Assembly: GCA_051874735.1 (NCBI GenBank)
Contig: JBJEGD010000026.1
Coordinates: 162,247 to 226,246 of the forward strand
DNA from: Candidatus Bruticola sp.
GTDB lineage: Bacteria > Vulcanimicrobiota > Xenobia > Xenobiales > Xenobiaceae
Length of the DNA stretch: 64,000 nt
Reading direction: 5' to 3'
The notes beneath the pieces were generated by a model. The model did not search any database and had not been told where the DNA came from. It worked only from the letters and a program-made list of their open reading frames with translations. The position numbers and the translations under genes were made by a program. The first letter of the stretch is position 1. Each line of letters starts with the position of its first letter. Positions 7,507-58,510 of this stretch are shown piece after piece.

Positions 7507-7679
7507 ATATTAAAAATACCCATAATTCTAACGTTAATAAAATATAGACTGTTTATAATAAAAAGAGGTTGAGCGGATTTTTTATCTTACGTTGAAAATT
7601 AGCGTTCGATCTGCTCGCTGCAGAGGGGGGAATACCTCTAATTTGTTTTATTTTATATTGTGTCTATGGAGTCTGTATC

Positions 7680-16275: not shown

Positions 16276-16511
16276 TTCTGCCTCCCAAAAATAATTATCA
16301 GAAATAAACTGTTAAAAAGAATGGCATAAATCCTCTTAATTATAGGTCTTATTAAAAAAATTATCAATTAAAAAGCATATTACGTATGTTCAAGAAATAA
16401 AAAAAACTTACTTTTCGATGTATGCCTAATAGATGTCTTTTTTACAAAAGATCGCTGCTTTCGTCGTTATTTCTGTTAAGATTGCTGGCCTTAGCTTTAA
16501 AGTTATTGTAA

Positions 16512-16546
16512 AGAAAAAAGCCCCGGATTTATATAAATCCGGGGCT
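16512..16546 (-). terminator. rho-independent terminator of pseudopilin-like paralog 2
   Basis: agccccggattt / aaatccggggct stem, followed on the minus strand by a T6 run (A-run 16514-16519 on plus). Confidence 0.75.
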
Positions 16547-16566
16547 GGATGGGCCTAGTTTGACCT

Positions 16567-19098
16567 TTAGAAGCTGGAGAACATAATCTGTTTAAGCTTT
16601 CTCCGAGCATTCAGCGAAATAAATGAACCCATGTAATCGGGGTCTAGAGTCATACCTACAGATTTGGCTTTTATATTTATTTGACCACCTTCGCCGTTGC
16701 CGGGAGTGCTGTTGCTAGGATCGCCTCCGTAGGCTATCATGGCGCCGGTTAAGTTGAGAGTACTATTAGAACCAAGGTCGGCATTAATATTGCCCCAAGC
16801 GTAGATAACTCCGGAAATATCTTGATCGGAATATTTTATTTCACCGTAGCGGGTCATCAAATCGCTGAGCTGACTCTGCTTTTTATCGCGGAAGTTCTTA
16901 CTGGCCAATTTGCTATCAACGTAGTTTTGCACGTTGCTCAAGTTATCGGGAGTAAACTCTGCATCGGATATTTCAATAGGAGTTACAGTACCATCGTCAT
17001 AGCCGTCATCGTCGTCATCGTCCCAGTTGTCATCATCAAACAGGTATTTTAATAACTTGTTAGTCTTGTTATAAAGATCTTGACGCGCTGTGGCTATTTC
17101 CCGAAACTTATCTTCAGATAAACAGAATTTATTTCGAGTGTTTGAATCTTGAGCCTGCAGATAAGCTGAGTCATCATCTTGTTTGCATTGAATGTTACAG
17201 AAATCTACAAGACAGGTACAGTATGCAAAATCATTATAATACTCTGATGAAGGTTGCCATCCTTGTATATGTTCATGTGAGCCAGCGGCTAGAGCGGCGC
17301 CCTCTTCATATCTGGACTGATAAAAATGGTCGAAGTATTTGTCAGTTTGTTGGGGACTAAAAAGATTGGAATCTATTTGACCATTTTCTCTGTAAGCAGC
17401 TAAGTATATTGACATGAGCGTCCTATATGCATTCAGAGCATCGTTTTTCATGTTTTGAGCTTCTGTAGGATGCTCAAGCCTAACTGTTTTGCCTTTGGGG
17501 TTATTTTTATTAGGTCCTTTTGATTTTCCAGGTTCGCTGGGTTTAACACTAATCGTTGGATCGCTTTCAGCCAACTGAAATTTTTTGGGTTCAGCTTTTT
17601 TTACCGTTTCAGTTACATCTTCAATGGGCAGCAGATTGACGTCGCCTTTAGCGTAAACTGAAACGCCAACGCCAGGATCCGATTCTAAAATGCTGGGCCC
17701 TTGCAAAGAGATGTTGCCAGCTGAAATTAGGGAGCCTCCTCCTAAGGCAGCTCCTTCAATGAAAATATTGTTGTCAGAAGTTATAATCGGATAATTGCCG
17801 GAACTGTCTTTCAGAAAAGCTACAATGGGACGGGAGGCTCCACCCTCTTTATCGTAGCGAATGATAAAAGAAGAGGTTTGGCCATTGGAAGCTACAGACA
17901 GATTATCAGAAATCGTCATAGTCTGACTGCTGAAATCTATTTCTATGCCGGGCATGTTAGCCGTTATTTTTGTTTTGGCTGTATCTGCCGGAATAGAAGT
18001 GCCAGGAGGGAAGTTGCCGTCGTAGCGAACTAATACGTTTGTTTTGCCGCTTTTGTCATCGGGATCTTTTTCCCAGCGATAAGTGCCGGCTGTAACTTTT
18101 ATAAAGGATTTATCCTTGCACTTTTCCTGTACCGATTCCCACGTAACTTGGGCGAAGTTACTGGTGTCTTTGCTGGTAAAAACGGTATAGCTCGATTGCT
18201 TAGGATCTGACAGTTTAATATCGCTGGCTGCAGCTGAGACGATCTGGCCGTCAGACATGTCGAGCAGGCCAGCATTGATGGAAGCACTACCTAAAGTTCG
18301 CATCTTGGGCGCATTGCTGCCTTTAGCATTGCTGGCTCTAATTACATTGGCCTTGATTGTCAAATTACTAGCGGCGCTAGCTACAGAGTCAGTAAATTGC
18401 TCTTCGGAATCTAAAGTTAAATAAGCTTCAGAGCGGACGGAAGTTTGGCCGGATAAGTCGGAGCTGCGCAAAGCGGCTAAATCGTCAAGTTCTAAATCGC
18501 GCAGTGAATTGCCAGCAAAACCTTCAGCTATTAAGTAGCAGCTGGCTTTGCCTAGCTCAAAACTGGGGGAATTCTCAGCTTCAACATATTTTGTACCGTA
18601 GGAGTCGCTACTTTCTTTCAGCCTAATAGTGCCGTCAGCGGAAGCTGTATAAACTTTAACGGGTGTGCTGTTGAATAAATTGTTTACTGAAACGTAAGGA
18701 GAAGCAATTTTGCCTGATAAGCTACTATTGTTGAGGCCATCTAAGCCGCCTGCGCCGTCTTCATAGTTGAATTTTAAACGGAAGAAAGATCTGCGGCCGT
18801 TAGATGTAGTAATACAGCCCAGTACGTTACCTTCTTTTTCAATAACTTCTAGGCCTTTGCTAGTTTCAGAAATATTTTTTGCTTCAGCTGCTCGCCAGGT
18901 AATATTGTCTTGTAGACGAGTAACGGCGTATTGTATACCTGATTGGGCCGCCATAAGGGCTTCTTCTCTTCCGTAAAAGTTAGAGGCCAGACGCATGCCG
19001 CCCAAATTGGAGTACACAACCGAACTTAGTAGCATGATTACTAACACAACGGTGAGCATTGTAGTTATCAACACAATGCCGCGTTTGTTTTTTAGCAT
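16567..19098 (-). CDS. large PilX_N/GspK-like pseudopilin-domain protein, paralog 2 (~843 aa)
   Basis: MLKNKRG-IVLITTMLTVVLVIMLLSSVVYSN... AAGGAGG RBS 9 nt upstream of ATG 19098. The TTG at 19107 abuts the RBS and is unlikely to be the start. Confidence 0.7.
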   Translation of the reverse strand: MLKNKRGIVLITTMLTVVLVIMLLSSVVYSNLGGMRLASNFYGREEALMAAQSGIQYAVTRLQDNITWRAAEAKNISETSKGLEVIEKEGNVLGCITTSNGRRSFFRLKFNYEDGAGGLDGLNNSSLSGKIASPYVSVNNLFNSTPVKVYTASADGTIRLKESSDSYGTKYVEAENSPSFELGKASCYLIAEGFAGNSLRDLELDDLAALRSSDLSGQTSVRSEAYLTLDSEEQFTDSVASAASNLTIKANVIRASNAKGSNAPKMRTLGSASINAGLLDMSDGQIVSAAASDIKLSDPKQSSYTVFTSKDTSNFAQVTWESVQEKCKDKSFIKVTAGTYRWEKDPDDKSGKTNVLVRYDGNFPPGTSIPADTAKTKITANMPGIEIDFSSQTMTISDNLSVASNGQTSSFIIRYDKEGGASRPIVAFLKDSSGNYPIITSDNNIFIEGAALGGGSLISAGNISLQGPSILESDPGVGVSVYAKGDVNLLPIEDVTETVKKAEPKKFQLAESDPTISVKPSEPGKSKGPNKNNPKGKTVRLEHPTEAQNMKNDALNAYRTLMSIYLAAYRENGQIDSNLFSPQQTDKYFDHFYQSRYEEGAALAAGSHEHIQGWQPSSEYYNDFAYCTCLVDFCNIQCKQDDDSAYLQAQDSNTRNKFCLSEDKFREIATARQDLYNKTNKLLKYLFDDDNWDDDDDDGYDDGTVTPIEISDAEFTPDNLSNVQNYVDSKLASKNFRDKKQSQLSDLMTRYGEIKYSDQDISGVIYAWGNINADLGSNSTLNLTGAMIAYGGDPSNSTPGNGEGGQINIKAKSVGMTLDPDYMGSFISLNARRKLKQIMFSSF

Positions 19099-19210
19099 AT
19101 CTGCCAACCTCCTTTACCTAAATTTTTATGCAGCTTTTAGGAGAGTTGTTGTAAAGCCGCTCGGTATTTTTCTTGTTTATGTTGTGTTTGAAGTTTGCTC
19201 CCATAAAAAG

Positions 19211-19278
19211 AGCCTAATCTAGGCTATTACACAATTAGAGCCCGCGTCCTTTATAAAAAATTAAGAAACGTGGGCTCT
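19211..19278 (-). terminator. hairpin region downstream of paralog 3 (weak terminator candidate)
   Basis: Short hairpin agcct/aggct followed on the minus strand by ctttttat. A longer imperfect hairpin agagcccgcg / cgtgggctct has no minus-strand U-tract. Confidence 0.3.
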
Positions 19279-19344
19279 AATTTATTTTTTGTTTAATTTA
19301 GGCTTGATGCTGCGATGCTGGATCGCACAGCATAGCGTAGCTAT

Positions 19345-21738
19345 TTAGAAGCTGGAGAACATAGTCTGTTTCAGCCTGCGTCTAGCATTGGCCGCTAAGA
19401 ATGAACCCATATAGTCAGGATCGAGAGTCATGCCAATACTGCCGGCATTTATAGTAATAGTTCCTTTCTTGTCTTTACCGGGAGTTTTTGTTTTAGGATC
19501 TGCTCCGTAGGCTACCATAGCTCCTGTAAGATTGAGCGTGCTGCTCGCACCTATATCGGCATTGATATTGCCCCACGCGTAAATAACGCCGGAAATATCT
19601 TGATCGGAGTATTTGAGTTGACCGTATCGAGTCATAAGGTCGGCCAACTGAGCTTCCTTATTGTCGCGGAAGTTGTCGCTAGCTAAATCTTTATCGATGC
19701 AGTTCTGCACATTGCTGATGTCGCTCGAGGAAAGCACCGTATCAACTTCAGTGGAACCGGCTACCTGCTCGGTTGGCTCCCAGTTATCTGGATTACGGAG
19801 ATATGTATCTAGCGCTGGCATCAGAGGTTGAGATTGATCTCCTTTATCTCCTCTATGTTTAGACATCGTTAAGGCGTAATACAGTTCCAACGCTTCGTCA
19901 AAGCTCATTTTATCTCCACCTATATAAGGAGTTATACTAAGAGACGATGTAACTTCTGGCTCACCATTTTGAAGCTTTGCACAGTTGCTTGCATACTCTG
20001 CACAGTAGGCTTCAAACATCAATGCGGCTGCTGCGTGGCTAGAGTCGCTGCTAAAGAAATTACTGCACTGTTTATGTTTTGTTGTGATATGACTGATAAT
20101 ATTGTTGAAAACATTAACTTTTAGAGCGTTATATTCGTCATTTTCTTTAAGAACATAAACTTTCTCTGTAGTGCTTCCCCCTGTTGAACCGCCGTTATTG
20201 TCGACTTCTGGAGGAGTGGTAGGCTTTATAGTGTCTTTGACGGTTGAGGTCAAGTCTTCAATGGGCAGCAGATTGACGTCTTTTTTAGAGTAGATGGAGA
20301 CGCCTACGCCGGGATCTGACTCCAAAATACTGGGCCCCTGCAAAGAGATATTGCCTTCAGAAGTAATAGAGCCGCCTCCCAAAGTGGCCGCCTGCAGAAA
20401 GATATCGCCTGAAGAACTGATAATGGGTGAAGTTTTTGTTTCAGGATTTTCTAAAAGAGCAACAATAGGACGGGAAGCACCGCTGTCCTTGTCATAGCGC
20501 ACAATAAAAGAGGCGTCTTTGCCGTCGGCTACTATCAGAAGGTTCTGCGATATTTTCATAGTTTGAGTATCAAAGTCTATGGTCATTCCTGGCAGACTCG
20601 ATACAACTGTCGATTTGGCGTCTGTGGGAATAGACTCGCCAGGAGGATAGATGCCTTGATAGCGTTTCAAAACATTCTTTTTGGTGTCAGGGTCAACGCT
20701 CCACACATAAGTTCCTGATTGCAACTCTGTGTACGTCTGGCCGGGAGAGTCTGCTTTGGTGACGTCATCCCAGATAATCTGAGCAAAATTGCCCGAATCG
20801 TTGCTACTTTTTGCCGTATAGTTAGCTTCTTTGTTAATGGATTGGCCGTTTATGCTGTAACTGCAGCCTTCCCCATAGTAAAATTGGCCGCTGGGAAAAT
20901 CTATGCTGTTGCTTTGTATAGTCAGATTCTTTAAGGTGCGGATTTTGGGGGCTGAACCGCCTTTAGCATTATTTACGCGAAAAATTGAAGAATTTGTTTT
21001 TAAATCGTTGGCTGCACAAGCTACAGAATCGGTAAACTGCTCATCTGCTGCTAAGTCCAGATAGCTTTCTACGGTTACACAGATGGCATTGCAGCGCTCT
21101 TTTGAAATTTTGAGCATATCTGTCAAGCTCATATCGCGCACTCCGTCGCCAGCGAAGCCTTCTACAACAAGATAGCAGCTCGATTTATCCAGCACAAAAT
21201 TGCTGGAATTTTCGGCTTCTTGGCGGTCTTTACCGTACTCATCTTTGTAAGTGTTCAGCTTGAGAGTGCCATCTTTTGATGCTGTATAGACTTTTGTCGA
21301 TATGCTGCTGGTAAGGTTATTAACAGAGACATAAGGAGAGGGAATTTTGGCTGAGTCTGAACTATCGTTCAGGCCATCAAAGCCATTTTCGCCGTCTTCA
21401 TAATTAAATTTTATGCGAAAGAAAGAGCGGCGTCCATTTTTGCTGTCGATCATGCCGACAACATTGCCGTTATTCTCAATGACGCTTAGACCTGTGCTGC
21501 TATCCGAAATAGTTTCGCTGTCGTCGCAGCCTTTCCAAGTGATGTTGTTCTGCAGCTTAGTTATGGCGTACTGTACGCCTGACTGGGCAGCCATGATGGC
21601 CTGTTCGCGTCCGTAAAAATTGGAAGCCAGTCTCATACTGCCTATATTTGAGTAAACTATTGAGCTAAGCAGCATAATTACCAACACTACCGTTAGCATG
21701 GTAGTGATTAGTACTATGCCTCGTTTGTTTTTCAACAT
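19345..21738 (-). CDS. large PilX_N/GspK-like pseudopilin-domain protein, paralog 3 (~797 aa)
   Basis: MLKNKRG-IVLITTMLTVVLVIMLLSSIVYSN... AAGGGGG RBS 5 nt upstream of ATG 21738. The ORF is open to ATG 21753. Confidence 0.7.
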   Translation of the reverse strand: MLKNKRGIVLITTMLTVVLVIMLLSSIVYSNIGSMRLASNFYGREQAIMAAQSGVQYAITKLQNNITWKGCDDSETISDSSTGLSVIENNGNVVGMIDSKNGRRSFFRIKFNYEDGENGFDGLNDSSDSAKIPSPYVSVNNLTSSISTKVYTASKDGTLKLNTYKDEYGKDRQEAENSSNFVLDKSSCYLVVEGFAGDGVRDMSLTDMLKISKERCNAICVTVESYLDLAADEQFTDSVACAANDLKTNSSIFRVNNAKGGSAPKIRTLKNLTIQSNSIDFPSGQFYYGEGCSYSINGQSINKEANYTAKSSNDSGNFAQIIWDDVTKADSPGQTYTELQSGTYVWSVDPDTKKNVLKRYQGIYPPGESIPTDAKSTVVSSLPGMTIDFDTQTMKISQNLLIVADGKDASFIVRYDKDSGASRPIVALLENPETKTSPIISSSGDIFLQAATLGGGSITSEGNISLQGPSILESDPGVGVSIYSKKDVNLLPIEDLTSTVKDTIKPTTPPEVDNNGGSTGGSTTEKVYVLKENDEYNALKVNVFNNIISHITTKHKQCSNFFSSDSSHAAAALMFEAYCAEYASNCAKLQNGEPEVTSSLSITPYIGGDKMSFDEALELYYALTMSKHRGDKGDQSQPLMPALDTYLRNPDNWEPTEQVAGSTEVDTVLSSSDISNVQNCIDKDLASDNFRDNKEAQLADLMTRYGQLKYSDQDISGVIYAWGNINADIGASSTLNLTGAMVAYGADPKTKTPGKDKKGTITINAGSIGMTLDPDYMGSFLAANARRRLKQTMFSSF

Positions 21739-22078
21739 ACTGACCCCCTTCATTGGATTATTTATAGGCTTAAATGTATACGAAATTTTATGTCAGATGT
21801 TAATGTTCTGGGTAAAGTGTGAAAACTAAAAAGGCTCATGGCCTATCCTGCTCTCATTCTACAATAGCTTGGTTATTATTGCCAACTTAATATTGTTAAT
21901 TTTCATCCCTTTATAAATGTTCTTAACTTTTTCTTTATGTTGAGAGGAGTTCAATTTTGAGCTTTTGAGATGTTGGCAAGCTGCTATATGTTACAAAGGA
22001 GTGAGATTTTTGCAAAAATAATAAAATAGATAAAAAATTGGCTTGTCTAAGCAGAAAAAAGTTTGTAAATTTAGGATA

Positions 22079-43790: not shown

Positions 43791-44453
43791 TTACTTAGTA
43801 GGCAAATTTTTGATATTGACTTTGGCAGTGGATTGAGCTGCCTGATTGTTTTTGCCTTTTTTATTCGTTTGATTTTGTGGATTAACTTTAACTACCGCTG
43901 AGCCTGGTTGAACTGGCCGAGGGTTGCTTGGAACTACTGCCTGAGGTTCTTGAGGCTTTACTGGAGCTGGAGACGAAGGTACCACTGCTTCCGGATCGCT
44001 AGGTTTTACTGGCGATGGAGCAGTGGGAACTCCTGGTTTAGGGGGAATTGGAATGCCCGCTCTAGGAGTTTGAGGAGGCTTAGAACCAGTTTCCCCTGAG
44101 GGCGGCTTGGTCATTTTTCCTGATACACTTGATGAATTGCCGTTTTCATCGTAAGCATTTTTAATCAGAGACGCCTCTACCTCTGGAGCAGGTTCCCCAG
44201 GCTGAAGTTCTGGATTACTATTGAATTGGACTAGTGTTTCCGCTGTTGCAGAAGAAGGATTCGAGCTGGGAACAGGAGTCGCCTCAATATATTTAGGCGT
44301 TGGGTTGGGAGGCTTGTTTGAAGCCTCCTGGGAAGTGATTACAGATGGATTTGTTCCTTCTGCTGGGGATGAATTCGGTGCAGCACAAGAAATGGCCCCC
44401 ATACTTAGTACCAGAGAACCGATTAGAAGCTTTACAATAGAATTATATCTCAT
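43791..44453 (-). CDS. proline-rich secreted protein, possible lipoprotein
   Basis: Signal peptide with SMGAISC (lipobox-like). The mature part is Pro/Ser/Val-rich with an imperfect tandem repeat P-x-PVKP-x-x-P-x-AVVPS. Confidence 0.6.
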   Translation of the reverse strand: MRYNSIVKLLIGSLVLSMGAISCAAPNSSPAEGTNPSVITSQEASNKPPNPTPKYIEATPVPSSNPSSATAETLVQFNSNPELQPGEPAPEVEASLIKNAYDENGNSSSVSGKMTKPPSGETGSKPPQTPRAGIPIPPKPGVPTAPSPVKPSDPEAVVPSSPAPVKPQEPQAVVPSNPRPVQPGSAVVKVNPQNQTNKKGKNNQAAQSTAKVNIKNLPTK

Positions 44454-46244: not shown

Positions 46245-46865
46245 ATATCTTCCTCTTTTATGACAATTTAGGCTAATAGTGTACCTTCAATTCTTTGGTA
46301 ATTTTTCTTTTTAAGTCAATTCCTTTTTTTTTGCATTAAGGTCAACCTAAGCGACTTAACCGATAACATGCAGTCAATCGCCTAATCACATAATAACCGT
46401 GTTTAATATGCAGTTTCCTGTTTGTTTTGCGCATATGATGTCAACAATATTTCTAAAATGATTTTTGTTTATAATTTTTTTAATAAAAATAAAAAAATGG
46501 TTACTTATTATGGTAGGCATGATTGGAGTGTTTAGTAGTCAAGTTCATTTGTATGTGTCCATGCAGATTGAGCTTCAATAAATAAGCATAAAGTTTATCT
46601 TGTAACAATTGATTGCAAAAATCAGTGTTAAACAGTTTTTGATTACGATTTGATCGTTTATTAGGCTTCTTGTATGCCTAAAAACTTTGTTCGGCTTAGT
46701 AAATTCAGTTGCAAAATAGATTGTAACTGAAACGATTTGATAATTGACGCATATTTCTCTTTGTCGGCTATGCACGCTGGGTAGTTAATGAATTTGTTTA
46801 CGGGTAGTTTGTCTGTATTTTCATAGAAAAGTATGAGTTTTTGTTGAGGAGGTAGCGTTGCTGTA

Positions 46866-49361
46866 ATGATTAATATGTCTTTTGAGGTAGAAGCTGCCAG
46901 TTATGAGCCTCTTCCAGTGAAATATTTAAAGGTTGAGCGGTTACCTGAGCACGATGAAAGAGTGAAATCGCTATCTAATTATCTGCCATCTAGCCAACAG
47001 CGTTTTTTTTTAGATAAGGTTTATCCATTTACTTATTATTTCCACTGTCAGCAGAAGCGTCACAGTGGAGAACCATATATTGTACATCCGATTTCTGTAG
47101 CCGAAATTTTGTCAAAATATCAGGTCGATTTGCCGACTTTGTCTGCTGCTCTTATGCACGACGTATATGAAGATCATAGCGATGAAATTTCTTTAAGTGA
47201 GATACGATGTTACTTCGGCTGCAATATTTGTAATATGGAGGATGGATTAACTAAAATAGGTATTGCTGCTTCCAAAAATCGCCGAGAAACGGCTGCCCTG
47301 AGAGAACAACTTCCCAAAGATCGTATAGATTCTATCGCCAATCAAAATATATACAATTCGATTTCCAAGCTTGGGGGGCAGCAAGAAGGGAGCTATTCCC
47401 AAACTTCTCCCGAAGAAGCGGCAGCTAGAGCAAAGCGTATAAAAATTGCCAACAAAAATGCTTCTTTAGCTAAATTACTTCTGGGGATAGCTTCAGACCC
47501 ACGCGTTATTTTGATTAAGCTGGCTGATAGACTCGATAATATGCGTACTTTGGACAGCTTGAGACCTGACAAACAGCAGAGAATAGCCAGAGAAACTTTA
47601 GAGTTCTTCTGTCCCATAGCCGATCGTTTCGGAGTTTGGGAAATAAAAAAAGAATTGGAAGATTTGTGTTTTCGTTATCTTTACAAAAATATATACAATA
47701 ATTTCAAAAAACAGGCAGAATTAGTTCGGGCCAAGAGACGAGGCAGTCTTGAAAAGACTGCTGAAAGAATTAGAAATCTACTAAACAGCAAATCTGTTGC
47801 TGCTGAAGTCCATATTAAAGACAGTAGTTTATATACCGTTTTCAGGCGGATGGAAAACCATGGACAAACTTCCATCGATGATGTTATAGGCTTGAGTTCT
47901 ATTGTCATAGTTGCCGATAGCGAATCTTCCTGTTATACCGTAGAAGGACTTATTAAGAGTAATCTTTCTTTCTGTGGCAGCAGTTTCTATAAAGATTACA
48001 TATCTTTGCCAAAGGCCAATAAATATAAGGCTATTCACATGGCTGTTTGGTCTGAAAGGCATATTACTAAAATACGTATATTCTCAGCTCAAGATCTTGA
48101 AATAAACAATATAGGCGTTTTTTCCGAGTTTAAAGGGTTGCCTTCAAGTTTGGAAGATAGCGATGTCAGCCGAATTATCAGTAAAAAATGGGCTACTTGG
48201 ATTCAATCTTTGAGAGCTTTGCACGACGTCGCCGCTGAAAATACCGATTTTCTTGATTGGGCTATGAGCGGTACGCTGACCCACTCAATTACTTGTTTTA
48301 CCTCCTGCGGTGACATGGTTAACCTGCCTATAGGGGCGACTCCGCTCGACTTCGCTTTTGCTCTTAATGTAGATTTGGGATTAAAGTGTGAAGGTGCGCT
48401 GGTAAACGATCAATCAGTATCTTGTTTAGATTATAAACTTAAGGATAACGATTTTGTCAAAATTATCAGTTCTGATTCGGTGATTATACAACGCAGTTGG
48501 TTCGATTGTTGTTGCACTCCGGAAGCTCGTTCTGCTCTTAGTACCTGGTATAAAAATAATTACAGCGCTGAGTCCAATCGTGCCTACGGGCAAAAATTGC
48601 TAACATCTGTTTTGATTAAAGCTAATCTTCCCGGTATGCAAAACAACGAAGAGTTTTTGAAACAATTAGCTCAAAAATGCACCTGTCCTTCCGTGCAGGA
48701 AATGTTGGAAATGATTGGCACTCGCCGCATTAGTCTAAAATTCGTTCGTGAACAGTTAAACGACTGTTTAAGTACTTATCGAAATGGCCGCGAAGACTGC
48801 GATCGGATGACAGAAAATAGCGATATCTCAGCTCTGGTGCACATACGTCGCTTTGATCGTTTCAAAGTTTGTGCTTGCAGTGAGTGTCTGCCTTTAATAG
48901 GCGACGATATTTTCGTTATGGGAGCGGCTCCTGGACAGCTGATTTTACATCGACGTGGCTGCGCGGATGCTGAAAAAAAATTACTCCTAGCTACTCAGAG
49001 TAGCGCTAGGCAAGATGCTACTCTTCCTGTTAAGAGCACCGAATTAAGGCGCGATCTGGAGCCGCTAGTCATTCATGAAAATGCCTCTTGGTTGGAAGAC
49101 AGTCATTCCAATGTGTCTGATCTCGGGCTGAGAGCTGAATTGACTGTAAAATCGGTCTACAGTTTTTCTTTAGCAGCAGAAATCATTGTGTGCTGTAACG
49201 ATCGCGATGAAAAAATTTATAACCTAAAATTAGACAATAATTTTGTTGGAGGAGCTTCTAGTTTGAGTATGCTTGTTGGAGTATCCAGCCTCAGCGAATT
49301 GGAAAGTCTGATTTCGTGTATAAAAAAGATAGATGGTGTCGTTGAAGTAACGCGTATTTAA
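46866..49361 (+). CDS. long RelA/SpoT homolog 1 (HD + degenerate synthetase + TGS + Zn-finger + ACT)
   Basis: HD motifs RHSGEPYIVHP, HDVYED, LADRLDNMRTL. TGS segment LPIGATPLDFAF. CxxC...HRRGC zinc-finger domain. The synthetase region lacks the EIQIRT...AAHW.YK motifs and reads KIRIFSAQDLEINNIGVFSEFKG. Confidence 0.85.
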   Translation: MINMSFEVEAASYEPLPVKYLKVERLPEHDERVKSLSNYLPSSQQRFFLDKVYPFTYYFHCQQKRHSGEPYIVHPISVAEILSKYQVDLPTLSAALMHDVYEDHSDEISLSEIRCYFGCNICNMEDGLTKIGIAASKNRRETAALREQLPKDRIDSIANQNIYNSISKLGGQQEGSYSQTSPEEAAARAKRIKIANKNASLAKLLLGIASDPRVILIKLADRLDNMRTLDSLRPDKQQRIARETLEFFCPIADRFGVWEIKKELEDLCFRYLYKNIYNNFKKQAELVRAKRRGSLEKTAERIRNLLNSKSVAAEVHIKDSSLYTVFRRMENHGQTSIDDVIGLSSIVIVADSESSCYTVEGLIKSNLSFCGSSFYKDYISLPKANKYKAIHMAVWSERHITKIRIFSAQDLEINNIGVFSEFKGLPSSLEDSDVSRIISKKWATWIQSLRALHDVAAENTDFLDWAMSGTLTHSITCFTSCGDMVNLPIGATPLDFAFALNVDLGLKCEGALVNDQSVSCLDYKLKDNDFVKIISSDSVIIQRSWFDCCCTPEARSALSTWYKNNYSAESNRAYGQKLLTSVLIKANLPGMQNNEEFLKQLAQKCTCPSVQEMLEMIGTRRISLKFVREQLNDCLSTYRNGREDCDRMTENSDISALVHIRRFDRFKVCACSECLPLIGDDIFVMGAAPGQLILHRRGCADAEKKLLLATQSSARQDATLPVKSTELRRDLEPLVIHENASWLEDSHSNVSDLGLRAELTVKSVYSFSLAAEIIVCCNDRDEKIYNLKLDNNFVGGASSLSMLVGVSSLSELESLISCIKKIDGVVEVTRI

Positions 49362-49445
49362 GCAGAAAGAATAGTCTTTTTTTATAGATATATCTCAACA
49401 ACTAAATCATATATCAATTTACAAAAAGAAAGGTTAGCTAGTTCT

Positions 49446-51842
49446 ATGACTTATATTCCTGAGGGCTGCAATCCGCAGGCAAAGTTTGACAAGCAAGGTC
49501 CCAATTATCCTGAGTTTGAGGATAGTGTAAGAAAAAGCTCCGCTCACCTTTCGCCAGAATGTCGCGATTTTATCGTTAATAAGGTTTATCCTTATGCTAA
49601 TTATTGGCATCAGTTTCAAAAGCCGCGCATTAACGGTAAGCCGTATATCTCTCATCCTGTAGCTGTAGTCGGCATTCTAGCTCCCTATAAACTTGATGTT
49701 TCCAGTGTGGCGGCAGCCCTGCTTCACGACGTCCATGAAGATAACGAAAATGATGTAAGTCTAGATGATATCAAGGAGCTATTTGGTACTGATATACGCA
49801 ATATTGTCGATGGTTTGACAAAAATAGGCAAGGCCAGTGCTAGACAGCGTCGCGAAGCGGTGCGAGCAGCTGTATGTGAAGCTTCTGCCGGTTTACTGAG
49901 TTCGTTACAGGCTTCTTTCGGACTTAATTTGGGAATAGAGAATAATTTAGCCGTTCCTTTAACTCCCGCTCAAATCAGAGAAAGAGCTCGCCAAGCTAAA
50001 CTAGATGATAAGGCAGCCAGTCTTACCAAGCTAGTTACAGAGATGGCCAGGGATATACGCATTATCATTGTTAAGTTGGCAGACCGCCTGCATAATATGT
50101 ATACTTTAGACGGGCTACGCCAAGATAAACAAATACGTATTGCTCAAGAGACTTTAAATTTTTTCGCTCCTTTAGCAACCCGTTTAGGTATGTGGCCTTT
50201 TAAGGTGGAGCTGGAAGACCTATGCTTCAAATATTTAGAACCTAGTCAGTATACTGAATTAAAAGAAAATTTAGCTGCTGAAAGGAGTCGTCGCTCAGAA
50301 TCTTTGGCGCAGACTTTAGAGTCAATACGCAAATCTTTAGTACAAGAAGGCATTTCGGCCAAGGCAGAGCTGCACACTAAATCACTTTATTCTGTGTTTG
50401 CTAAAATGCGACGTCAGCATAAAACTTTAGAGCAAATTTTCGATTTAGATCCTATATCTATAGTGGTTGATGATAAAAATACCTGTTATCAGGTACTGAG
50501 GGTCATTCATCAGCGTTTTGGATTTTTGCAGGGGAAATTCCGCGATTATATTGCTAATCCTAAAAGCAATAATTATCAAGCTTTGCACACTACAATTTCG
50601 GCTGACGGCCGACTGCCTGTGGAAATTCAAATCTGCACGTATGATGAAGAAGCTGAGAATAACTTGGGAGTGCTCAATGTTTTTGTCTCGGGAAGGTACA
50701 GCGCTGAAGCTAATAGCGGTGAAGTTAACAAACTATTTCGTCCTTTTGCTCCTTGGTTAGCCTCTTTAAGCCATATAAAAGAAGGTTGTAAAGAAGATCA
50801 AGACTTTTTAGATGTTCTCTGTCAGGATGAGCTTACTGTTGGAGTAGTCTGCACTACTCCGGACGGTCGCAGCATTGAATTGCCGCAAGGAGCAACACCT
50901 TTAGACTTCGCCTTTAAAATTCATACTCAGTTGGGATTGTGTTGTACTGGAGCTATTATAAATGATAGGGAAGTATCTCTGACTGGTTATGAACTGCGTG
51001 ATAACGATGTTGTGCAAATTCTGTCTTCTGATAAGGAGAATCCGTCCCGTAATTGGTACGCCCATTGTCGGACTAGGCAAGCGCGCTCAGTTATAAGTAA
51101 GTGGTTCTTTGTAAATCAGACGCCTGAGCCTAACCGCACTATAGGTTATAAAATGATTTGTGCGGAGCTGATTCGTCAGGGTGCCGCTGGAGCGCAGACT
51201 AATGCTGAAATTATGAAAGCTATGGTGAGTTCTCTCAATTTCAAGTCACTTGAAGAACTTTATATCGCTATAGGCAGCTTTCGTACTCCTATGTCAAATT
51301 TTTCTAAGTGCTTCAAAAATTACCGTGAGAATAATCCTCAGCAGTTTGACAATTTAGATTGCGATCCAATGCGTTTGCGCGATATCTCTCTGTCAGTAAG
51401 GATTGCAGAGCAGCCTAAGGCTCGTTGCTTTGCCTGTAGACAGTGTACTCCTGTTTTTGGAGATTCTATTAAGGCTGTGGGTGGCAAAAAGAATAAGGGA
51501 TATGTCATTCATCGCGGCAGTTGTTCTTTGATCGCTGAAGCCGCTGGGGCCGGAAGGCGAATTTATGAAGCAGAGTGGATCAGTGGCATCGATCCTAAAC
51601 TATTCATGCTGCGTGCCACCATTCAAATATGTGCTTTAGTGCGTCATGGATTGTCTAATTCCGTTATTAGTGTTTTTGACAGTAAAAATGTTCTAATATA
51701 CAACTACAAGTTCACTAATGATTACGCTAAAAATGTGACCAGTATAAAAATAGAAGTAGGTGCTGCTTCTATAGAAGAGCTGGAAATGCTGATGGATGAG
51801 CTGCGGTCTGTGGACAGTGTAGTTACAGTTGAAAGAGCCTAA
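49446..51842 (+). CDS. long RelA/SpoT homolog 2 (HD + degenerate synthetase + TGS + Zn-finger + ACT)
   Basis: RINGKPYISHP, HDVHED, LADRLHNMYTL. TGS segment LPQGATPLDFAF. The synthetase region reads LHTKSLYSV...DLDPISIVV...EIQICTYDEEAENNLGVLNVFVSG, so the key Arg and the HW.YK residues are replaced. Confidence 0.85.
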   Translation: MTYIPEGCNPQAKFDKQGPNYPEFEDSVRKSSAHLSPECRDFIVNKVYPYANYWHQFQKPRINGKPYISHPVAVVGILAPYKLDVSSVAAALLHDVHEDNENDVSLDDIKELFGTDIRNIVDGLTKIGKASARQRREAVRAAVCEASAGLLSSLQASFGLNLGIENNLAVPLTPAQIRERARQAKLDDKAASLTKLVTEMARDIRIIIVKLADRLHNMYTLDGLRQDKQIRIAQETLNFFAPLATRLGMWPFKVELEDLCFKYLEPSQYTELKENLAAERSRRSESLAQTLESIRKSLVQEGISAKAELHTKSLYSVFAKMRRQHKTLEQIFDLDPISIVVDDKNTCYQVLRVIHQRFGFLQGKFRDYIANPKSNNYQALHTTISADGRLPVEIQICTYDEEAENNLGVLNVFVSGRYSAEANSGEVNKLFRPFAPWLASLSHIKEGCKEDQDFLDVLCQDELTVGVVCTTPDGRSIELPQGATPLDFAFKIHTQLGLCCTGAIINDREVSLTGYELRDNDVVQILSSDKENPSRNWYAHCRTRQARSVISKWFFVNQTPEPNRTIGYKMICAELIRQGAAGAQTNAEIMKAMVSSLNFKSLEELYIAIGSFRTPMSNFSKCFKNYRENNPQQFDNLDCDPMRLRDISLSVRIAEQPKARCFACRQCTPVFGDSIKAVGGKKNKGYVIHRGSCSLIAEAAGAGRRIYEAEWISGIDPKLFMLRATIQICALVRHGLSNSVISVFDSKNVLIYNYKFTNDYAKNVTSIKIEVGAASIEELEMLMDELRSVDSVVTVERA

Positions 51843-51876
51843 AAAATACAGCATTGTCATTTGAGGTTTATAAAAA

Positions 51877-54213
51877 ATGGGAGAAGAAAAGAAGTTATTG
51901 GAAAAAAAAGCTGAGGTTGCTTTAAATGGAAAAAAGATAGATTTAAATAAAGAGCTGCCTGCATTTAAGCAGCAGTTAGAAGACAAATATTGGTCGAAAT
52001 TGGCTCAATGCGCTTCTTATCTTGATGAAGAACGGCTGAAAAAATTGAGAAAAGCTCTCGATTTAGCTTTTCGAGCCCATGATGGGCAGTTCCGATTTTC
52101 TAATGATCCTTATGTCGATCATCTTGTTGAAGTAACCAAAATTTTAGCTTCTTACCATTTGGATTCCACTACTTTGTGTACTGGGATGTTGCACGATTTA
52201 ATCGAGGAAGAAACTGGTGTTAGTCTTGACTATGTGACTGAGCAGTTTGGTAAAGAACTTAGTAATTTAATTAACGATGTCACCAATCTTACTAAGCGTT
52301 TTGCCAGCGAAACTGAAAATTTAGAAAATAAAGATCGACGCCAATCGAAAGAATTTACTCGCTTGGGAGGCAAAGAGGCTGCCGACGAAAATTTGCGCAA
52401 AATCTTTTTGGTCATTGCTCGTGATTTGCGTGCCATTTTAGTTAAATTTGCCGATCGCTTACACAATCTTCGTACTTTAGAATTTTGCAAAGTTGATTTG
52501 CAGAAAAAGATTGCGCAGGAAACTTTAGATATTTTCGCTCCGCTAGCTTCGCGTTTAGGGGTTTGGGAGTTTAAAGCTGAATTAGAAAATTTATCTTTTC
52601 GGTATGCACTACCGGAAGAGTATCTGGCACTCAATCGCGATTTAGAAGAAGTGCGCCCTGCTTTTGTCGCTGTCATGGACAAAATCGTAGCAACTTTAAA
52701 AGAAAATCTGCGAGAATTAAATGTAGAAAACGAGTTAGAGTATCGTTTTAAACATCTTTACAGTATTTATCGTAAAAAGGTGCGTTCTCATAAAAGTTTA
52801 TCCGAAATTTACGATCTAGCGGCCATACGCGTTTTAGTGCCTACAGTAGAAGATTGCTATATGATTTTCGGTTTAGTGCACTCTTTATGGTCTCCCATGC
52901 AAGGACGCATTAAAGATTATATAGCTCATCCTAAGCCTAATAATTACCGTTGCCTGCATACTACGGTTATAGGACCTGATGATGTGCCAGTAGAGATCCA
53001 GATTCGTACTTTTGAAATGCATAAAGTTAACGAAGTTGGCGTGGCCGCTCACTGGGCTTACAAAGAAGGCAAAGTGAGCGCCGATAAGAGTCGGCGTGAT
53101 ATCTTCGCTGAATTGTATCCGTGGATTAGAGCTCTCTTTGATTGTAGTCATGAAGATGAAAGCGATGTCGGTGAACATGCCAAGTTTAGTGTACCTTCTA
53201 ATGAAGTTTTTGCCTTCACTCCCTTAGGCGATGTTGTCAATTTGCCCATGGGAGCAACACCTATTGATTTTGCTTACCGAGTACATAGCGAAGTAGGTAA
53301 CCGCTGTGTGGGAGCCTTAGTCAATGGGCGTATAGTACCGCTTACTTATAAGTTATCTACTGGCGATCAAGTAGAGATAAAAACGGCCAAAAATGGTACT
53401 CCTTCGCGCGATTGGTTGCGTATTTGTACGAGTCATCAAGCTTTAAGTAAAATCCGCGGTTGGTTTAAACGAGAGCGCCGGGAAGAAAATATCATCTGCG
53501 GACGGGAAGCGGTGAAGGCTGAACTGAAGCGCCTTCGTTTAGAAGACCTTCTCAACAATGAAGAAATTATGCTCAAAGCTGCTCAACAGCTAAGCTTTGT
53601 CAGCGGTGATGACTTATTGGCCAGTATAGGTTATGGTGAAACTTCTGTTTTGCAAGCTGTCAGCCGTCTGCAGAATGCTCTGCCTAAAACTGAAGTTGCG
53701 CCCGAAATCCCTCTGCCGGAAAATTCGCAGGCTGCCGCTAAGCGTTCAGGATCTGGACGAGAAGTTATTGTTGAAAATATTGATACCCTTTTAACTAAGA
53801 TGGCCCGCTGCTGCATGCCCGTGCCCGGAGATGATATCATTGGATATATTACGGTCGGCAGTGGAGTCTCTGTACATAGGGCTGATTGCGTTAATTTCGC
53901 CCATCTGTCCAAAGTGCATCCTGAGCGCGTTGTTCAATGTGCCTGGAATACTTCTTCTGTGCAGGCTAGTAAAACTTACTGGGTTCATATTGTCATTGAA
54001 GCGTGGGATCGCTCTGGATTAGTTGGTGAAGTGTTGGCGTGTCTTAGCGATATACGGATAAGTGTAAAATCTTGTCAGGCGCTTACAGTTGGCGATAAAG
54101 CCAAGATAAAGCTTTCTGTTGAAGTTACTGGCAACAAGCAGCTGGAAGAAGCCCTTAAAAGATTAGGGGGAGTAAAGAGTGTATTTTCGGCAGTTCGTTC
54201 TAAAAACAGATAA
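51877..54213 (+). CDS. rel: bifunctional-type (p)ppGpp synthetase/hydrolase, canonical long RSH (Rel)
   Basis: Complete synthetase signature: [66 protein letters not shown] domain ([18 protein letters not shown]), [16 protein letters not shown] Zn-finger and ACT are present. dtd follows, as in many genomes. Confidence 0.92.
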
Positions 54214-54272: not shown

Positions 54273-54725
54273 ATGCGTGCAGTTGTTCAAAGAGTCTTAG
54301 GCTCTAGCGTGGAAGTAGATAATCAGGTTGTTGGCCAAATAGGGCAGGGACTTTTAGTTTTAGTAGCTGTTCATTGTGATGATACTGAGAAAGAAGCTGA
54401 CTGGCTAGCTCATAAAATAACTCATCTGCGTATCTTTTCCGATGAAAATGATAAGATGAATTTGAGCGTTTCCGATATCGGCGGGCAAGTATTAGTCGTT
54501 TCTCAGTTTACCCTTTACGGCGATTGTCGCAAAGGTTTGCGTCCTAGCTACAGTCATTCAGCGGCGCCTCAAGAAGCTTCGCGCCTCTATTCCTATTTCG
54601 TAGAAAAAATCAAATCTTGTGGTTTAGAAGTTCAGGAGGGAGTCTTTCAGGCTCACATGCTGGTTAGTTTAGTTAATGACGGTCCAGTTACCATTATAAT
54701 CGATACCCCTAGCATAACTAAGTGA
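54273..54725 (+). CDS. dtd: D-aminoacyl-tRNA deacylase
   Basis: MRAVVQRV..., [33 protein letters not shown]. Canonical DTD, 150 aa. Confidence 0.93.
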
Positions 54726-54737: not shown

Positions 54738-55130
54738 GTGGCTTATAAAGTTTTTGTAGTTGACGATTCCAAGTTTATGCGCATGATGCTGGGAGAAGTT
54801 ATTACTTCTATGGGATGTGAAGTCATCGAAATAGACAGCGGGCGGCGCGCTGTAACCATGTATGAGCATTATAAGCCTGATTTGGTGACTTTAGACATTC
54901 TGATGCCTGAACAGGATGGTATTGAAACGCTTAAGCAGCTTTTTGATACCGATCCTAACGCTAAGGTTGTTATGGTGACGGCATTGGGTATGGAAGATTA
55001 CATTAAGCAGGCGATGGAGCTAGGGGCCTGTGGTTTTATTGTGAAGCCTTTTTCCGCTGAGCAAGTAGAAACAGTACTTTCGGAAGTCTTAGGCGATCCT
55101 TCTTTGCACATTTCGGCTGATGAATTTTAA
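54738..55130 (+). CDS. single-domain CheY-like response regulator receiver
   Basis: VFVVDDS, phospho-acceptor context LVTLDILMP, VVMVTA, KPF. GTG start 12 nt after the dtd stop. Confidence 0.88.
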   Translation: MAYKVFVVDDSKFMRMMLGEVITSMGCEVIEIDSGRRAVTMYEHYKPDLVTLDILMPEQDGIETLKQLFDTDPNAKVVMVTALGMEDYIKQAMELGACGFIVKPFSAEQVETVLSEVLGDPSLHISADEF

Positions 55131-56948: not shown

Positions 56949-57677
56949 ATGGATTACACTGAACATGTTGGCTGGTTTTTTAAAAGACGCAATTTTTGGA
57001 GCTGTTTAGCTAAAATGGGACTCTTGTTTTTTACAATTTTTGGTCCTTTGTGCTACAGCGCAGAGATAACTAGAGAGACTGTTAAAAAAGGGTCCGCTGA
57101 AGCTGAAATGCCTCTGTTCACTTTTGATAATTGCTGCTCACGCAGTATTATGCTTTGGCTTTGCTGGATCAGCATGTCATTTATACCTGCGTTGTTGGGT
57201 GTCGTGCTTATTCTGCTCGATTACACGCCAGCGGCTAAATTCTTTACTGGGATTTCTACCTTTTTATCGCTTGTTTACCTACCTGCTTTCCTAATATGCG
57301 CAGCTTCCGGAGATGATAGCTCTTCAGTATATGGCAAATTCTTTAGTCTCCCCTGGGTGGGATTGCCCAAATATTATGGATTAGTTTTTATTTACGCTAT
57401 TTGGACAGGAGTGGTCAGTGCGGTTATGATTCTGCCCATTTCCTTCGTTATGCTCGGCATTGTTGCTATAGGATTAGAAAAATTTGCTTTAGCAATTATT
57501 ATGCTGCTGCCAGCAATTTTTTTGGCTTTAATGATTAGTTTTGCCGCTCATGCTTATGCTTTCGCTTCTGTGGCTTCTCTAATTGGTACTTACATGCGCA
57601 CATATAAAGAACTGCTTTTAGCTAAAAATATTGTCCGTCCTGAAGCTTTTTTATTGGAAGGAAGTTTTGAAGAGTAG
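56949..57677 (+). CDS. polytopic membrane protein (DUF4013-like topology)
   Basis: 5-6 hydrophobic segments. GAAGGGG RBS 7 nt upstream. Architecture is similar to the next gene. Confidence 0.6.
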   Translation: MDYTEHVGWFFKRRNFWSCLAKMGLLFFTIFGPLCYSAEITRETVKKGSAEAEMPLFTFDNCCSRSIMLWLCWISMSFIPALLGVVLILLDYTPAAKFFTGISTFLSLVYLPAFLICAASGDDSSSVYGKFFSLPWVGLPKYYGLVFIYAIWTGVVSAVMILPISFVMLGIVAIGLEKFALAIIMLLPAIFLALMISFAAHAYAFASVASLIGTYMRTYKELLLAKNIVRPEAFLLEGSFEE

Positions 57678-57829: not shown

Positions 57830-58510
57830 ATGCAGTTTTTAAAGCCAATTAATTATATAATGGATGCCCCTCAAATTGTCAAAAAAATTTTTATTTTATT
57901 GATATTCACCATCTTCATCATAACTATTCCGGCTGTTGGTGGCTATACCGTAAAAATTATTAAAAATATACGCAGCGGTAAATTGGAGCTTCCTGATCTT
58001 GAATTCGGAGATTTCTCCGAGCTTTTCAGCGAAGGATGCCGTGTATTTCTGCAAATGTTCCTGCTTATGCTTCCTGCGGTTATTTTCATAGGCATAGGCA
58101 TGGCGATTATGTTTACGCAAGACAGCCCTATGCTGGGCATAGTCTTTATTATTATTGGACTGGTGGGAGTTTTTATAGCTAGTTACTTGTCATCGGCAAT
58201 TTTTTGTTTGGCTGCCAAAGACTCTGACTGGATGTTGATTAAGTTCGACAAAATTCATAGTATTATGTACAGCGAAAACGCTTCTTACCTGAAACTGTTC
58301 GCCTTCATTTTCGTTTGGAATATAATATTTAATGCTGTGAGTATGGTACCGATTGTTGGTATCGTGATCCCCATGCTGCTGGTTTTTGTGCAGGGCGTTT
58401 TGTGTGGAGAGTACATGAGATTAGTCGATCCTGAAGACAATGCTACTGAAGCTTATGATATTGGTTCAGGTTCTGATAAGATAAAGTCCGATTCTGCATA
58501 CTTCAGCTAA
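57830..58510 (+). CDS. DUF4013-like membrane protein
   Basis: N-terminal layout (IVKKIFILLIF...AVGGYTVKIIKNIRSGKLELPDLEFGDFSELFSEG) resembles DUF4013. AAGGAGAG RBS 5 nt upstream. Confidence 0.62.
   Translation: MQFLKPINYIMDAPQIVKKIFILLIFTIFIITIPAVGGYTVKIIKNIRSGKLELPDLEFGDFSELFSEGCRVFLQMFLLMLPAVIFIGIGMAIMFTQDSPMLGIVFIIIGLVGVFIASYLSSAIFCLAAKDSDWMLIKFDKIHSIMYSENASYLKLFAFIFVWNIIFNAVSMVPIVGIVIPMLLVFVQGVLCGEYMRLVDPEDNATEAYDIGSGSDKIKSDSAYFS

Follow-up and report, generated by a model that had tools for sequence, protein, structure and literature searches.

RelA and SpoT are the textbook case in which a bifunctional enzyme with opposing activities, the synthesis and the hydrolysis of the alarmone (p)ppGpp, has been split between two proteins. 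This split is ancient and its intermediates are lost, and in E. coli the relA and spoT genes lie far apart on the chromosome. Here a comparable gene arrangement is described from Candidatus Bruticola sp., class Xenobia, phylum Vulcanimicrobiota (Eremiobacterota, formerly UBP9). A stretch of 64,000 nucleotides (nt) of its DNA (GenBank assembly GCA_051874735.1, contig JBJEGD010000026.1, positions 162,247–226,246 of the forward strand), termed the window, carries three adjacent genes for long RelA/SpoT homologs (RSHs), termed copy 1, copy 2 and copy 3. The array appears to represent an independent, operon-linked split of the RelA/SpoT type, with one predicted synthetase (copy 3) and two predicted hydrolases (copies 1 and 2); the probability of this reading is put at about 0.65.

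In E. coli and in the Beta- and Gammaproteobacteria, RelA[hS] and SpoT[HS] are likewise paralogues derived from Rel, by which synthesis and hydrolysis are separately controlled. RelA does not have the hydrolase motif HDxxED and has a longer regulatory loop between helices alpha6 and alpha7 (H-loop). The longer H-loop is thus in the synthetase-specialised protein, and the same is seen in copy 3 of the array when it is compared with single-copy Rel. There are also differences. The hydrolase site is barely altered in copy 3 (ED to EE), but the whole HDxxED motif is missing in RelA. SpoT of E. coli is still a weak synthetase, whereas the two upstream copies of the array are without key synthetase residues. 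Linkage and copy number differ as well.

Among characterised systems, the RelA[hS]/SpoT[Hs] pair of the Moraxellaceae comes closest; there, a bifunctional Rel was likewise duplicated and then fully partitioned (Atkinson 2011; Tamman 2022). SpoT[Hs] of A. baumannii is a hydrolase-only protein that keeps a regulatory pseudo-synthetase (pseudo-SYNTH) domain with the equivalent arginines lost, and its alpha6–alpha7 loop is shortened (Tamman 2022). The pair and the array appear to have in common that one paralogue serves synthesis and has a degenerate hydrolase site and another serves hydrolysis and has a pseudo-SYNTH domain; in both, the C-terminal regulatory domains appear to be all kept. Unlike the Moraxellaceae pair, the array is of independent origin in another phylum and consists of three genes, which are adjacent and probably co-transcribed. 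In addition, the loop that is shortened in SpoT[Hs] is greatly lengthened in copies 1 and 2.

In plant chloroplasts, synthetase and hydrolase functions are partitioned among the paralogues RSH1, RSH2/3 and CRSH. These differ from the array in being eukaryotic, in having unlinked nuclear genes and other C-terminal domains, and in their origin by an unrelated event. Thirteen long-RSH subfamilies have been catalogued. The sections of the survey of Atkinson (2011) that were available describe multiple long RSHs in plants, RelA/SpoT, and lineage-specific second long RSHs (RshA–D). Thus the statement in the initial annotation of this DNA that bacteria normally encode one long RSH or two unlinked ones is too simple. 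In the same sections, the divergent extra long RSHs are nested in or near the Rel of the host lineage and are attributed to duplication or transfer, and the hydrolase (HD) domain of RshB diverges asymmetrically; they are single second copies labelled [HS], and no tandem array, third copy or series from one to two to three genes is mentioned there (Atkinson 2011). A synthetase beside a counteracting hydrolase in one operon is known from the toxSAS-antitoxin operons, e.g. FaRel with a small alarmone hydrolase as antitoxin (Jimmy 2020). These are single-domain toxin-antitoxin proteins of mobile or defence loci, in contrast to the full-length, housekeeping-type long RSHs of the array at an ancestral rel-dtd locus. 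A literature search, with incomplete coverage of journals, yielded no triple or tandem long-RSH array, no such family in Eremiobacterota and no work on the stringent response in this phylum, in agreement with the earlier remark that no described tandem triplet was known to the annotator.

All three proteins are long RSHs. Bit scores for copies 1, 2 and 3 with Pfam HD_4 are 114, 116 and 132 (cutoff 27.2), with RelA_SpoT (PF04607) 35.1, 87.8 and 137 (cutoff 27), with TGS (PF02824) 40.3, 57.1 and 76.5 (cutoff 22.2), and with ACT_4 25.2, 38.6 and 45.1 (cutoff 27, so that copy 1 is just under it). The TIGR00691 (spoT_relA) profile gives E-values of 7e-122, 4e-154 and 4e-191, which exclude a chance similarity; by bit score, copy 1 (407.9) is below the curated cutoff of 499.2, and copies 2 (514.8) and 3 (636.8) are above it. 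The alignment of copy 3 with solved Rel and RelA proteins runs over the full length (mycobacterial Rel 8fr8, E = 4e-154). Copy 2 also aligns with solved Rel/RelA proteins, with its HD match interrupted by an insertion. The zinc finger (ZFD) is canonical in copy 3 (CC.P.PGD...HR..C), and copies 1 and 2 display C..C.P..GD...HR..C. The C..C spacing of the first Cys pair is kept in the copy-1 and copy-2 orthologues; ordinary Rel, and the upstream genes of the two-gene loci described below, have CC.

The initial annotation had allowed that copies 1 and 2 might prove not to be RSH proteins. They are RSH proteins, and the domain motifs quoted there are all present in the three sequences. Its description of a complete architecture is correct for the fold. 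It does not extend to the chemistry, as the synthetase (SYNTH) domains of copies 1 and 2 are without key catalytic and substrate residues, and none of the three copies has both active-site motif sets intact. Public records label these proteins “RelA/SpoT family protein” or “bifunctional”. Residue numbers of motifs are those of S. equisimilis Rel, and the roles of the numbered catalytic and substrate residues are those given in the Rel literature.

Related loci (L numbers) show what may be earlier stages of the array at the same chromosomal site. Ca. Xenobium (L025) and GCA_037975395.1 (L028) have one Rel of 736–738 amino acids (aa) at the syntenic position, and it precedes dtd, a receiver gene and the genes for thiamine pyrophosphokinase (TPK), a thiamine transporter and L28. 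Four loci (L026, L027, L029 and L030) have two tandem long-RSH genes at this site. The single-copy Eremiobacterota Rels display complete hydrolase motifs (R..G.PY..HP, HDxxED, TK, K.ADRL.N and ET...APLA.RLG) and complete synthetase motifs (R.K..YS...K, D..A.R, KDYIA.PK.N.Y..LHT, EIQIRT and AAHW.YKEG). The upstream genes of the two-gene loci, like copies 1 and 2, keep the motifs HP, HDxxED, TK and K.ADRL.N and have lost AAHWxYK and the equivalents of R269 and R327.

A neighbour-joining (NJ) tree (707 columns, 100 bootstraps) places all upstream genes in one clade (bootstrap 100) with the topology (L026_up,(L027_up,(copy-1 clade 96, copy-2 clade 100) 100)). Copy 3 groups with the downstream genes (100), and the sister of this second clade is single-copy Eremiobacterota Rel (100). 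Identity to copy 3 falls off gradually among its relatives, down to 49% in Ca. Xenobium. This topology indicates that a first duplication gave the upstream paralogue and that a second duplication, of that paralogue, gave copies 1 and 2. Copies 1 and 2 are 37% identical, copies 1 and 3 only 28%. The earlier suggestions that copies 1 and 2 are closest to each other, and that duplication was followed by specialisation, are thus upheld, the first by these identities and the NJ bootstrap of 100, the second by the one-, two- and three-gene series at one site, the tree and the reciprocal loss of motifs.

The proposed sequence of events is as follows. A single bifunctional Eremiobacterota rel gene would have undergone two successive tandem duplications at its original site upstream of dtd. 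After the first, the downstream gene would have gone on to serve (p)ppGpp synthesis and would have retained the C-terminal domains that sense ribosome and tRNA, with drift at its hydrolase site, and the upstream gene would have kept the (p)ppGpp hydrolase site while its synthetase domain decayed to a non-catalytic regulatory module. The upstream gene would then have been duplicated again to give copies 1 and 2. The result would be one operon with one alarmone synthetase and two differently regulated alarmone hydrolases, together with dtd and the receiver protein, in which synthesis and degradation could be tuned independently, as with RelA and SpoT.

The array is an analogue and not a member of RelA/SpoT, because the cutoffs of the equivalog models are not reached and the tree groups copy 3 with Eremiobacterota Rel. 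With the proteobacterial RelA equivalog NF008124 (cutoff 728), the score of copy 3 is 494.5 bits, and copies 1 and 2 score 299.8 and 358.5 bits with the proteobacterial SpoT equivalog NF008303 (cutoff 947). Copy 3 may therefore work like RelA without being a RelA family member, and the likeness of copies 1 and 2 to SpoT would be one of functional analogy only.

The H-loop also changes along the series. Between TK and K.ADR there are 33 residues in ordinary Rel, 42 in the single-copy Eremiobacterota Rels, 46–74 in the downstream genes and copy 3, 52–72 in the upstream genes of the two-gene loci, 81–84 in copy 2 and 62–130 in copy 1 (alignment columns). Copies 1 and 2 have an insertion of ~50 aa in this regulatory loop. 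In L029 the upstream RSH gene (positions 6445–8900) is frameshifted into open reading frames (ORFs) of 188 aa and 604 aa, exactly within the H-loop insertion; either an error in sequencing or a true split at a loop that tolerates it could explain this.

Among the three copies, only copy 3 has the complete synthetase set R.K..YS...K, D..(G/A).R, EIQIRT and AAHW.YK. In its hydrolase domain, R..G.PY..H, HD, K.ADRL.N and ET...APLA.RLG are retained; HP is changed to HL or HV, and HDxxED to HDxxEE with one extra residue, in every copy-3 orthologue and every downstream gene of the two-gene loci. HDxxEE is absent from single-copy Rels. Among 238 retrieved homologues it is found only in P0121–P0137 and P0139, i.e. 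in this clade, and 215 have ED (the hydrolase motifs of P0121–P0123 and P0236 were read from the alignment; P0236 has HD..ED). The claim that only the third copy is canonical thus fits the synthetase half but not the hydrolase half, which has HDLIEE and not HDxxED, HL in place of HP, and HDxxEE in every orthologue. The domains of copy 3 also differ in conservation, 0.58–0.59 for HD and 0.75–0.79 for SYNTH. This is the reverse of single-copy Rel pairs, where HD is at least as conserved as SYNTH (e.g. 0.74 vs 0.70). For copies 1 and 2 compared with Ca. Xenobium Rel, the values are 0.51–0.53 for HD and 0.23–0.37 for SYNTH. Copy 3, the presumed descendant of the ancestral Rel, is predicted to synthesise (p)ppGpp in a ribosome-dependent manner and to have a hydrolase that is weakened or inactive ([hS], possibly [HS]).

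It is also conceivable, though rather unlikely, that copy 3 is still a fully bifunctional Rel[HS] and that copies 1 and 2 are extra hydrolases that reinforce alarmone degradation, with no division of labour. The four retained hydrolase motifs would agree with this, as would the single active-site change, a conservative D to E, and the annotation of copy-3 orthologues as bifunctional by NCBI. However, HDxxEE and the change of HP to HL arise exactly with the upstream paralogue and are then fixed in every descendant, and the motif is ED in all 215 other homologues where it can be identified. Furthermore, HD has become the least conserved catalytic domain of copy 3, unlike in single-copy Rels, and the H-loop is lengthened (46–74 vs 42), as in RelA.

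Copy 2 displays the opposite pattern to copy 3. Its HD motifs, including HDVHED, are intact in 8 of 8 orthologues. In the synthetase domain, the segment IFDLDPIS shows the loss of the R269 equivalent, and the R241 equivalent is variable. VEIQICT has Cys at the position of R327, and GVLNVFVSGRY stands in place of AAHWxYKEG; both are invariant across orthologues. The equivalents of D264, E323, Q325, K243, K251, Y308 and H312 are kept, and SYNTH is nearly as conserved as HD. The loss of adenine- and guanine-coordinating arginines parallels that in A. baumannii SpoT (Tamman 2022). AlphaFold modelling of copy 2 (alignment of 72 sequences, mean predicted local distance difference test score (pLDDT) 86.5) gives TM-scores, normalised by target length, of 0.85–0.91 between its N-terminal half and solved Rel catalytic fragments. 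The H-loop insertion is modelled as a helical hairpin (helices at aa 128–158 and 174–202), with a pLDDT there of only 51–75. The whole model does not fit any single solved global state, compact tau or extended (TM 0.36–0.41 with full-length RelA, SpoT and Rel). Copy 2 is predicted to be a hydrolase with a conserved, non-canonical pseudo-synthetase domain ([Hs]).

The residues kept in this domain, the invariance of EIQICT and LNVFVSGRY in orthologues down to 50% identity, and a conservation of SYNTH close to that of HD would also be expected if the domain had been neofunctionalised, e.g. for pyrophosphate transfer to another acceptor, for (pp)pApp metabolism or for allosteric sensing of alarmones. 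This is thought improbable. The ATP adenine is normally held between two arginines, of which R241 is variable here and R269 is lost. R327 is missing too, a state like that of the inactive pseudo-SYNTH domain of A. baumannii SpoT, and a purely regulatory domain would likewise show strong conservation.

Copy 1 also has intact hydrolase motifs: RHSGEPYIVHP, HDVYED, TK and KLADRLDN. There are 87 residues from TK to K.ADR, compared with 33 in ordinary Rel, and the Pfam HD_4 match is split at profile position 84/85. The synthetase domain is more degenerate than in copy 2. In HIKDSSLYTVFRRM the equivalents of R241 and K243 are lost, in VIGLSSIV those of D264 and R269; TKIRIFS replaces EIQIRT, with loss of E323, and GVFSEFKG replaces AAHWxYK. 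These positions vary among the copy-1 orthologues too, and SYNTH is the least conserved catalytic domain of this protein. Copy 1 is predicted to be hydrolase-competent and synthetase-dead ([Hs]).

The TGS motif of copy 1 has Asn at the equivalent of H420 of B. subtilis Rel, a residue that senses the tRNA CCA end. At this column the copy-1 orthologues have N,N,R,H,H,D,D,N, but all copy-2 and copy-3 proteins, the upstream and downstream genes and the reference Rels have H. Copy 1 evolves 3–4 times faster than the other copies, its orthologues being 26–58% identical where those of copy 2 are 50–79% identical. Of the two putative hydrolases it is the more derived one, and it is probably uncoupled from tRNA sensing.

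Several copy-1 orthologues have unusual structures. That of L004 (2588–5422, 944 aa) carries a 57-residue Lys/Ala-rich insertion directly after HDxxED and has an H-loop of 130 residues; its hydrolase motifs are partly eroded (PY to LY, HP to HL, R.G lost), and hydrolysis may be lost in that lineage. Two orthologues from goat rumen, in L016 (5669–7687, 672 aa) and L017 (5159–7147, 662 aa), are without the zinc-finger region, which points to a C-terminal truncation of copy 1, the most labile paralogue. The orthologue in L019 (6438–9104, RUG807) carries 28 additional residues, made of short DL(D/N)S(V/I)E-like repeats, inserted midway through the degenerate Syn2 motif.

The rapid evolution of copy 1, the loss of the TGS histidine in most orthologues, the truncations in L016 and L017 and the eroded HD motifs of L004 (LY, HL) could mean that copy 1, and perhaps copy 2, is an inert pseudoenzyme that regulates copy 3 as a heteromer or competes for the ribosome. 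This is considered very unlikely, since the metal-binding and catalytic HD motifs are complete in copies 1 and 2 of the window and in most orthologues, HD is among the best-conserved domains of both, and the ratio of nonsynonymous to synonymous substitution rates (dN/dS) is far below 1.

The array is found in a very small family. A database search with copy 2 yields eight clusters at 50–100% identity and a ninth, at 39%, which is a copy-1 orthologue; beyond these there is an abrupt fall to ordinary Rel at ~32%. A scan of one genome per species places the family in 11 metagenome-assembled genomes (MAGs), UBP9 UBA4705 among them, which come from human (Hadza) gut, from the rumen of goats and cattle and from comparable sources. 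Ten other MAG or metagenome locus groups have orthologous copies in unchanged order; the carriers are labelled Ca. Bruticola, UBP9 UBA4705, Hadza gut, goat rumen or “Eremiobacteraeota”. The matches in L020–L024 were rejected; these are unrelated short RSHs (Patescibacteria, Myxococcales and an unclassified MAG) with a chance match to the pattern LLHDVHED.

Every gut or rumen locus with enough flanking contig has the three long-RSH genes in the same order, followed by dtd and the receiver gene. On the opposite strand beyond the receiver gene, the relatives have TPK, the thiamine transporter and rpmB (L28). BLAST of each locus ORF with the three proteins of the window shows one-to-one orthology at each array position. 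Identities to copies 1/2/3 of the window are 58/79/80% for L015, 50/67/64% for L014 and 26/50/63% for L004; thus copy 1 is always the fastest-evolving. In every related locus with downstream sequence except L030, dtd follows the last or only RSH gene. In the one-gene and three-gene loci the receiver gene comes after dtd. Of the four two-gene loci, L027 and L029 also have it there, and L026 and L030 do not have it. The array is common within its lineage, but no paper describing it was found; the initial annotation had considered that such arrays might be both common and already characterised.

Purifying selection acts on all three genes. In the least saturated pair, L011 and L015 (dS ~0.7), dN/dS is 0.055, 0.013 and 0.018 for copies 1, 2 and 3, and in five further pairs of close genomes with all three copies it is 0.047–0.069, 0.017–0.025 and 0.023–0.033 (Nei-Gojobori method; pairs beyond ~80% protein identity are saturated at synonymous sites and were excluded). 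Such values, far below 1, show strong purifying selection, and thus none of the three is a pseudogene. The paralogy of the genes, their order, their conservation, this selection and the states of the motifs can be read directly from the genomes.

It might be argued that the array is an assembly artefact, or a set of functionless decaying duplicates, as the source organism is uncultured and represented only by metagenome assemblies, and the upstream gene of L029 is frameshifted. This is effectively refuted. Assemblies from many samples and studies arrived independently at this order of three genes, the copies cannot be collapsed repeats because they are only 28–37% identical, and all three are intact ORFs whose dN/dS does not exceed 0.07. 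Among the Xenobia of gut and rumen, the array is a conserved trait.

The features of the locus are listed in Table 1, with gene coordinates from the ORF list of the window. The initial annotation had given three same-strand ORFs of 831, 798 and 778 aa with gaps of 84 and 34 nt, followed by dtd; the ORF list agrees exactly, and the identity of dtd is confirmed by Pfam. Along the gene string from copy 1 to the receiver gene the spacers are 84, 34, 59 and 12 nt. Each of the three copies has a purine-rich ribosome-binding site (RBS) 12–13 nt 5′ of its start, and the RBS ahead of dtd is weak, as read from the sequence. A terminator scan found no G+C-rich terminator in any spacer of the array, and its counts resembled those of shuffled sequence. 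The three copies, dtd and the receiver gene are likely co-transcribed, as judged from this spacing, and the receiver gene is probably the last of the operon, as the next gene converges on the array. Promoter-like matches are at chance level when compared with shuffled sequence, and thus the promoter of the array was not located. The non-coding region at 46245–46865, between a divergent M2/M3-type peptidase gene and copy 1, is unusually long and AT-rich and could hold regulatory elements of the array. An Rfam scan of the whole window, which covers T-box and ppGpp riboswitch leaders, matched zero families. Besides the array, tblastn detected no further RSH genes within the window, including small alarmone synthetases and hydrolases.

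Table 1. Features of the long-RSH array and its flanks (positions in the window)
Feature	Position	Strand	Basis or remark
Upstream region of copy 1, presumed promoter and leader	46245..46865	+	AT-rich, 620 nt; sequence read
RBS of copy 1, GAGGAGG	46846-46852	+	13 nt ahead of ATG
Copy 1, long RSH, 831 aa	46866..49361	+	ORF list, Pfam, TIGR00691
Copy 1, enlarged alpha6-alpha7 H-loop, aa 132-217	47259..47516	+	Alignment-column count
Copy 1, degenerate synthetase motifs	47811..48137	+	Motif tables
Copy 1, TGS motif LPIGATPLDFAFALN	48324..48368	+	Asn at B. subtilis Rel H420 equivalent
Spacer copy 1/copy 2, 84 nt	49362..49445	+	AT-rich; AAGG RBS ~12 nt ahead of ATG
Copy 2, long RSH, 798 aa	49446..51842	+	ORF list, Pfam, TIGR00691
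Copy 2, enlarged alpha6-alpha7 H-loop, aa 128-209	49827..50072	+	83 residues TK to K.ADR
Copy 2, altered synthetase motifs	50370..50699	+	LHTKSLYSVFAKM, IFDLDPIS, VEIQICT, GVLNVFVSGRY
Spacer copy 2/copy 3, 34 nt	51843..51876	+	GAGG RBS 12 nt ahead of ATG
Copy 3, long RSH, 778 aa	51877..54213	+	ORF list, Pfam, TIGR00691
Copy 3, variant hydrolase motif HDLIEE	52192..52209	+	HDxxED to HDxxEE, plus one extra residue after
Copy 3, canonical synthetase motifs	52741..53070	+	Motif tables; RelA_SpoT 137 bits
dtd, D-aminoacyl-tRNA deacylase	54273..54725	+	Pfam Tyr_Deacylase E=1e-60; 59 nt 3′ of copy 3
Stand-alone receiver-domain (CheY-like) gene	54738..55130	+	Pfam Response_reg E=7e-29; 12 nt after dtd

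A number of points weigh against the proposed split and its origin by tandem duplication. The upstream clade attaches just outside the Eremiobacterota Rels in the full-length tree, with a bootstrap of 68. In an NJ tree of the HD domain only, it stands beside Eremiobacterota Rel with a bootstrap of 40, which is consistent with duplication but not decisive. The HD domain of this clade is marginally closest to Ca. Xenobium Rel (0.52–0.60), which ties with the Rels of other phyla in the case of the upstream gene of L026 and of copy 2 of the window. As the attachment is weak, it is mainly synteny that supports tandem duplication within the lineage, and the trees are distance-based NJ trees on long branches. 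Formally, horizontal acquisition of the upstream clade, rather than tandem duplication, is still a candidate explanation.

Further points of this kind concern function. The change of D to E in copy 3 is conservative, within an acidic pair, and copy 3 may still hydrolyse (p)ppGpp, as it keeps all four metal ligands (H, HD and the D of K.ADR). The pseudo-synthetase domain of copy 2, with its retained residues and invariant altered motifs, might still bind nucleotides or catalyse a reaction. The analogy to SpoT[Hs] fails at the H-loop, which is very long in copies 1 and 2 and unusually short in SpoT[Hs]. The activities of the three copies are predicted from sequence motifs and the co-transcription from gene spacing, and the signals that each hydrolase would sense are likewise a matter of prediction.

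Further observations concern other parts of the window. At 13903–21753 (minus strand) there are three consecutive large ORFs of 790, 846 and 802 aa, two of which have a PilX_N pseudopilin-like N-terminus; the remainder of each protein has no Pfam match. These may be tandem paralogues, pilus- or secretion-associated. Two adjacent genes for membrane proteins of similar size are at 56949–57677 and 57830–58510 (plus strand). The second is a DUF4013 protein and the first is without a Pfam match; two or three tandem DUF4013 genes are found at the same place in L004 and L026. A Pro/Ser-rich ORF of 220 aa at 43791–44453 (minus strand), predicted to be secreted or lipoprotein-like, has no Pfam match, and an ORF of similar size, likewise without a Pfam match, adjoins the peptidase gene in L001–L003.

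The array is familiar in its fold, its domains and its evolutionary principle; it is unusual in copy number, in linkage, in the preservation of intermediates and in the expansion of the loop. The array may, very tentatively, be the first three-enzyme module of the stringent response, in which a dedicated synthetase and two non-redundant hydrolases are encoded in one operon, the hairpin is a new input device (e.g. an arm that binds a partner or ligand, or a contact to copy 3), and copy 2 has gained a new site, allosteric or catalytic, in its invariant, remodelled synthetase pocket. The finding would also contradict a reported trend, that hydrolase-specialised long RSHs shorten the alpha6–alpha7 loop, as the putative hydrolases here have the longest loops.

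Compared with RelA/SpoT, the array would represent an independent split in another phylum, in which living relatives still display the one-, two- and three-gene stages at one position of the chromosome and the earliest changes to the active sites remain minimal (HDxxED to HDxxEE, and the loss of two or three arginines). It thus becomes testable which substitutions switch off each activity, whether a silent domain turns regulatory, and why a second hydrolase is useful. If the split is true, experiments could retrace stepwise how an enzyme with two opposing activities comes to be divided. Gut-associated Eremiobacterota are known from the guts of non-industrialised humans, primates and ruminants. 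To our knowledge no member of the class Xenobia has been cultured, and the only isolate of the phylum found in the literature search belongs to a different class. The array would give a first view of stress signalling in gut-associated Eremiobacterota.

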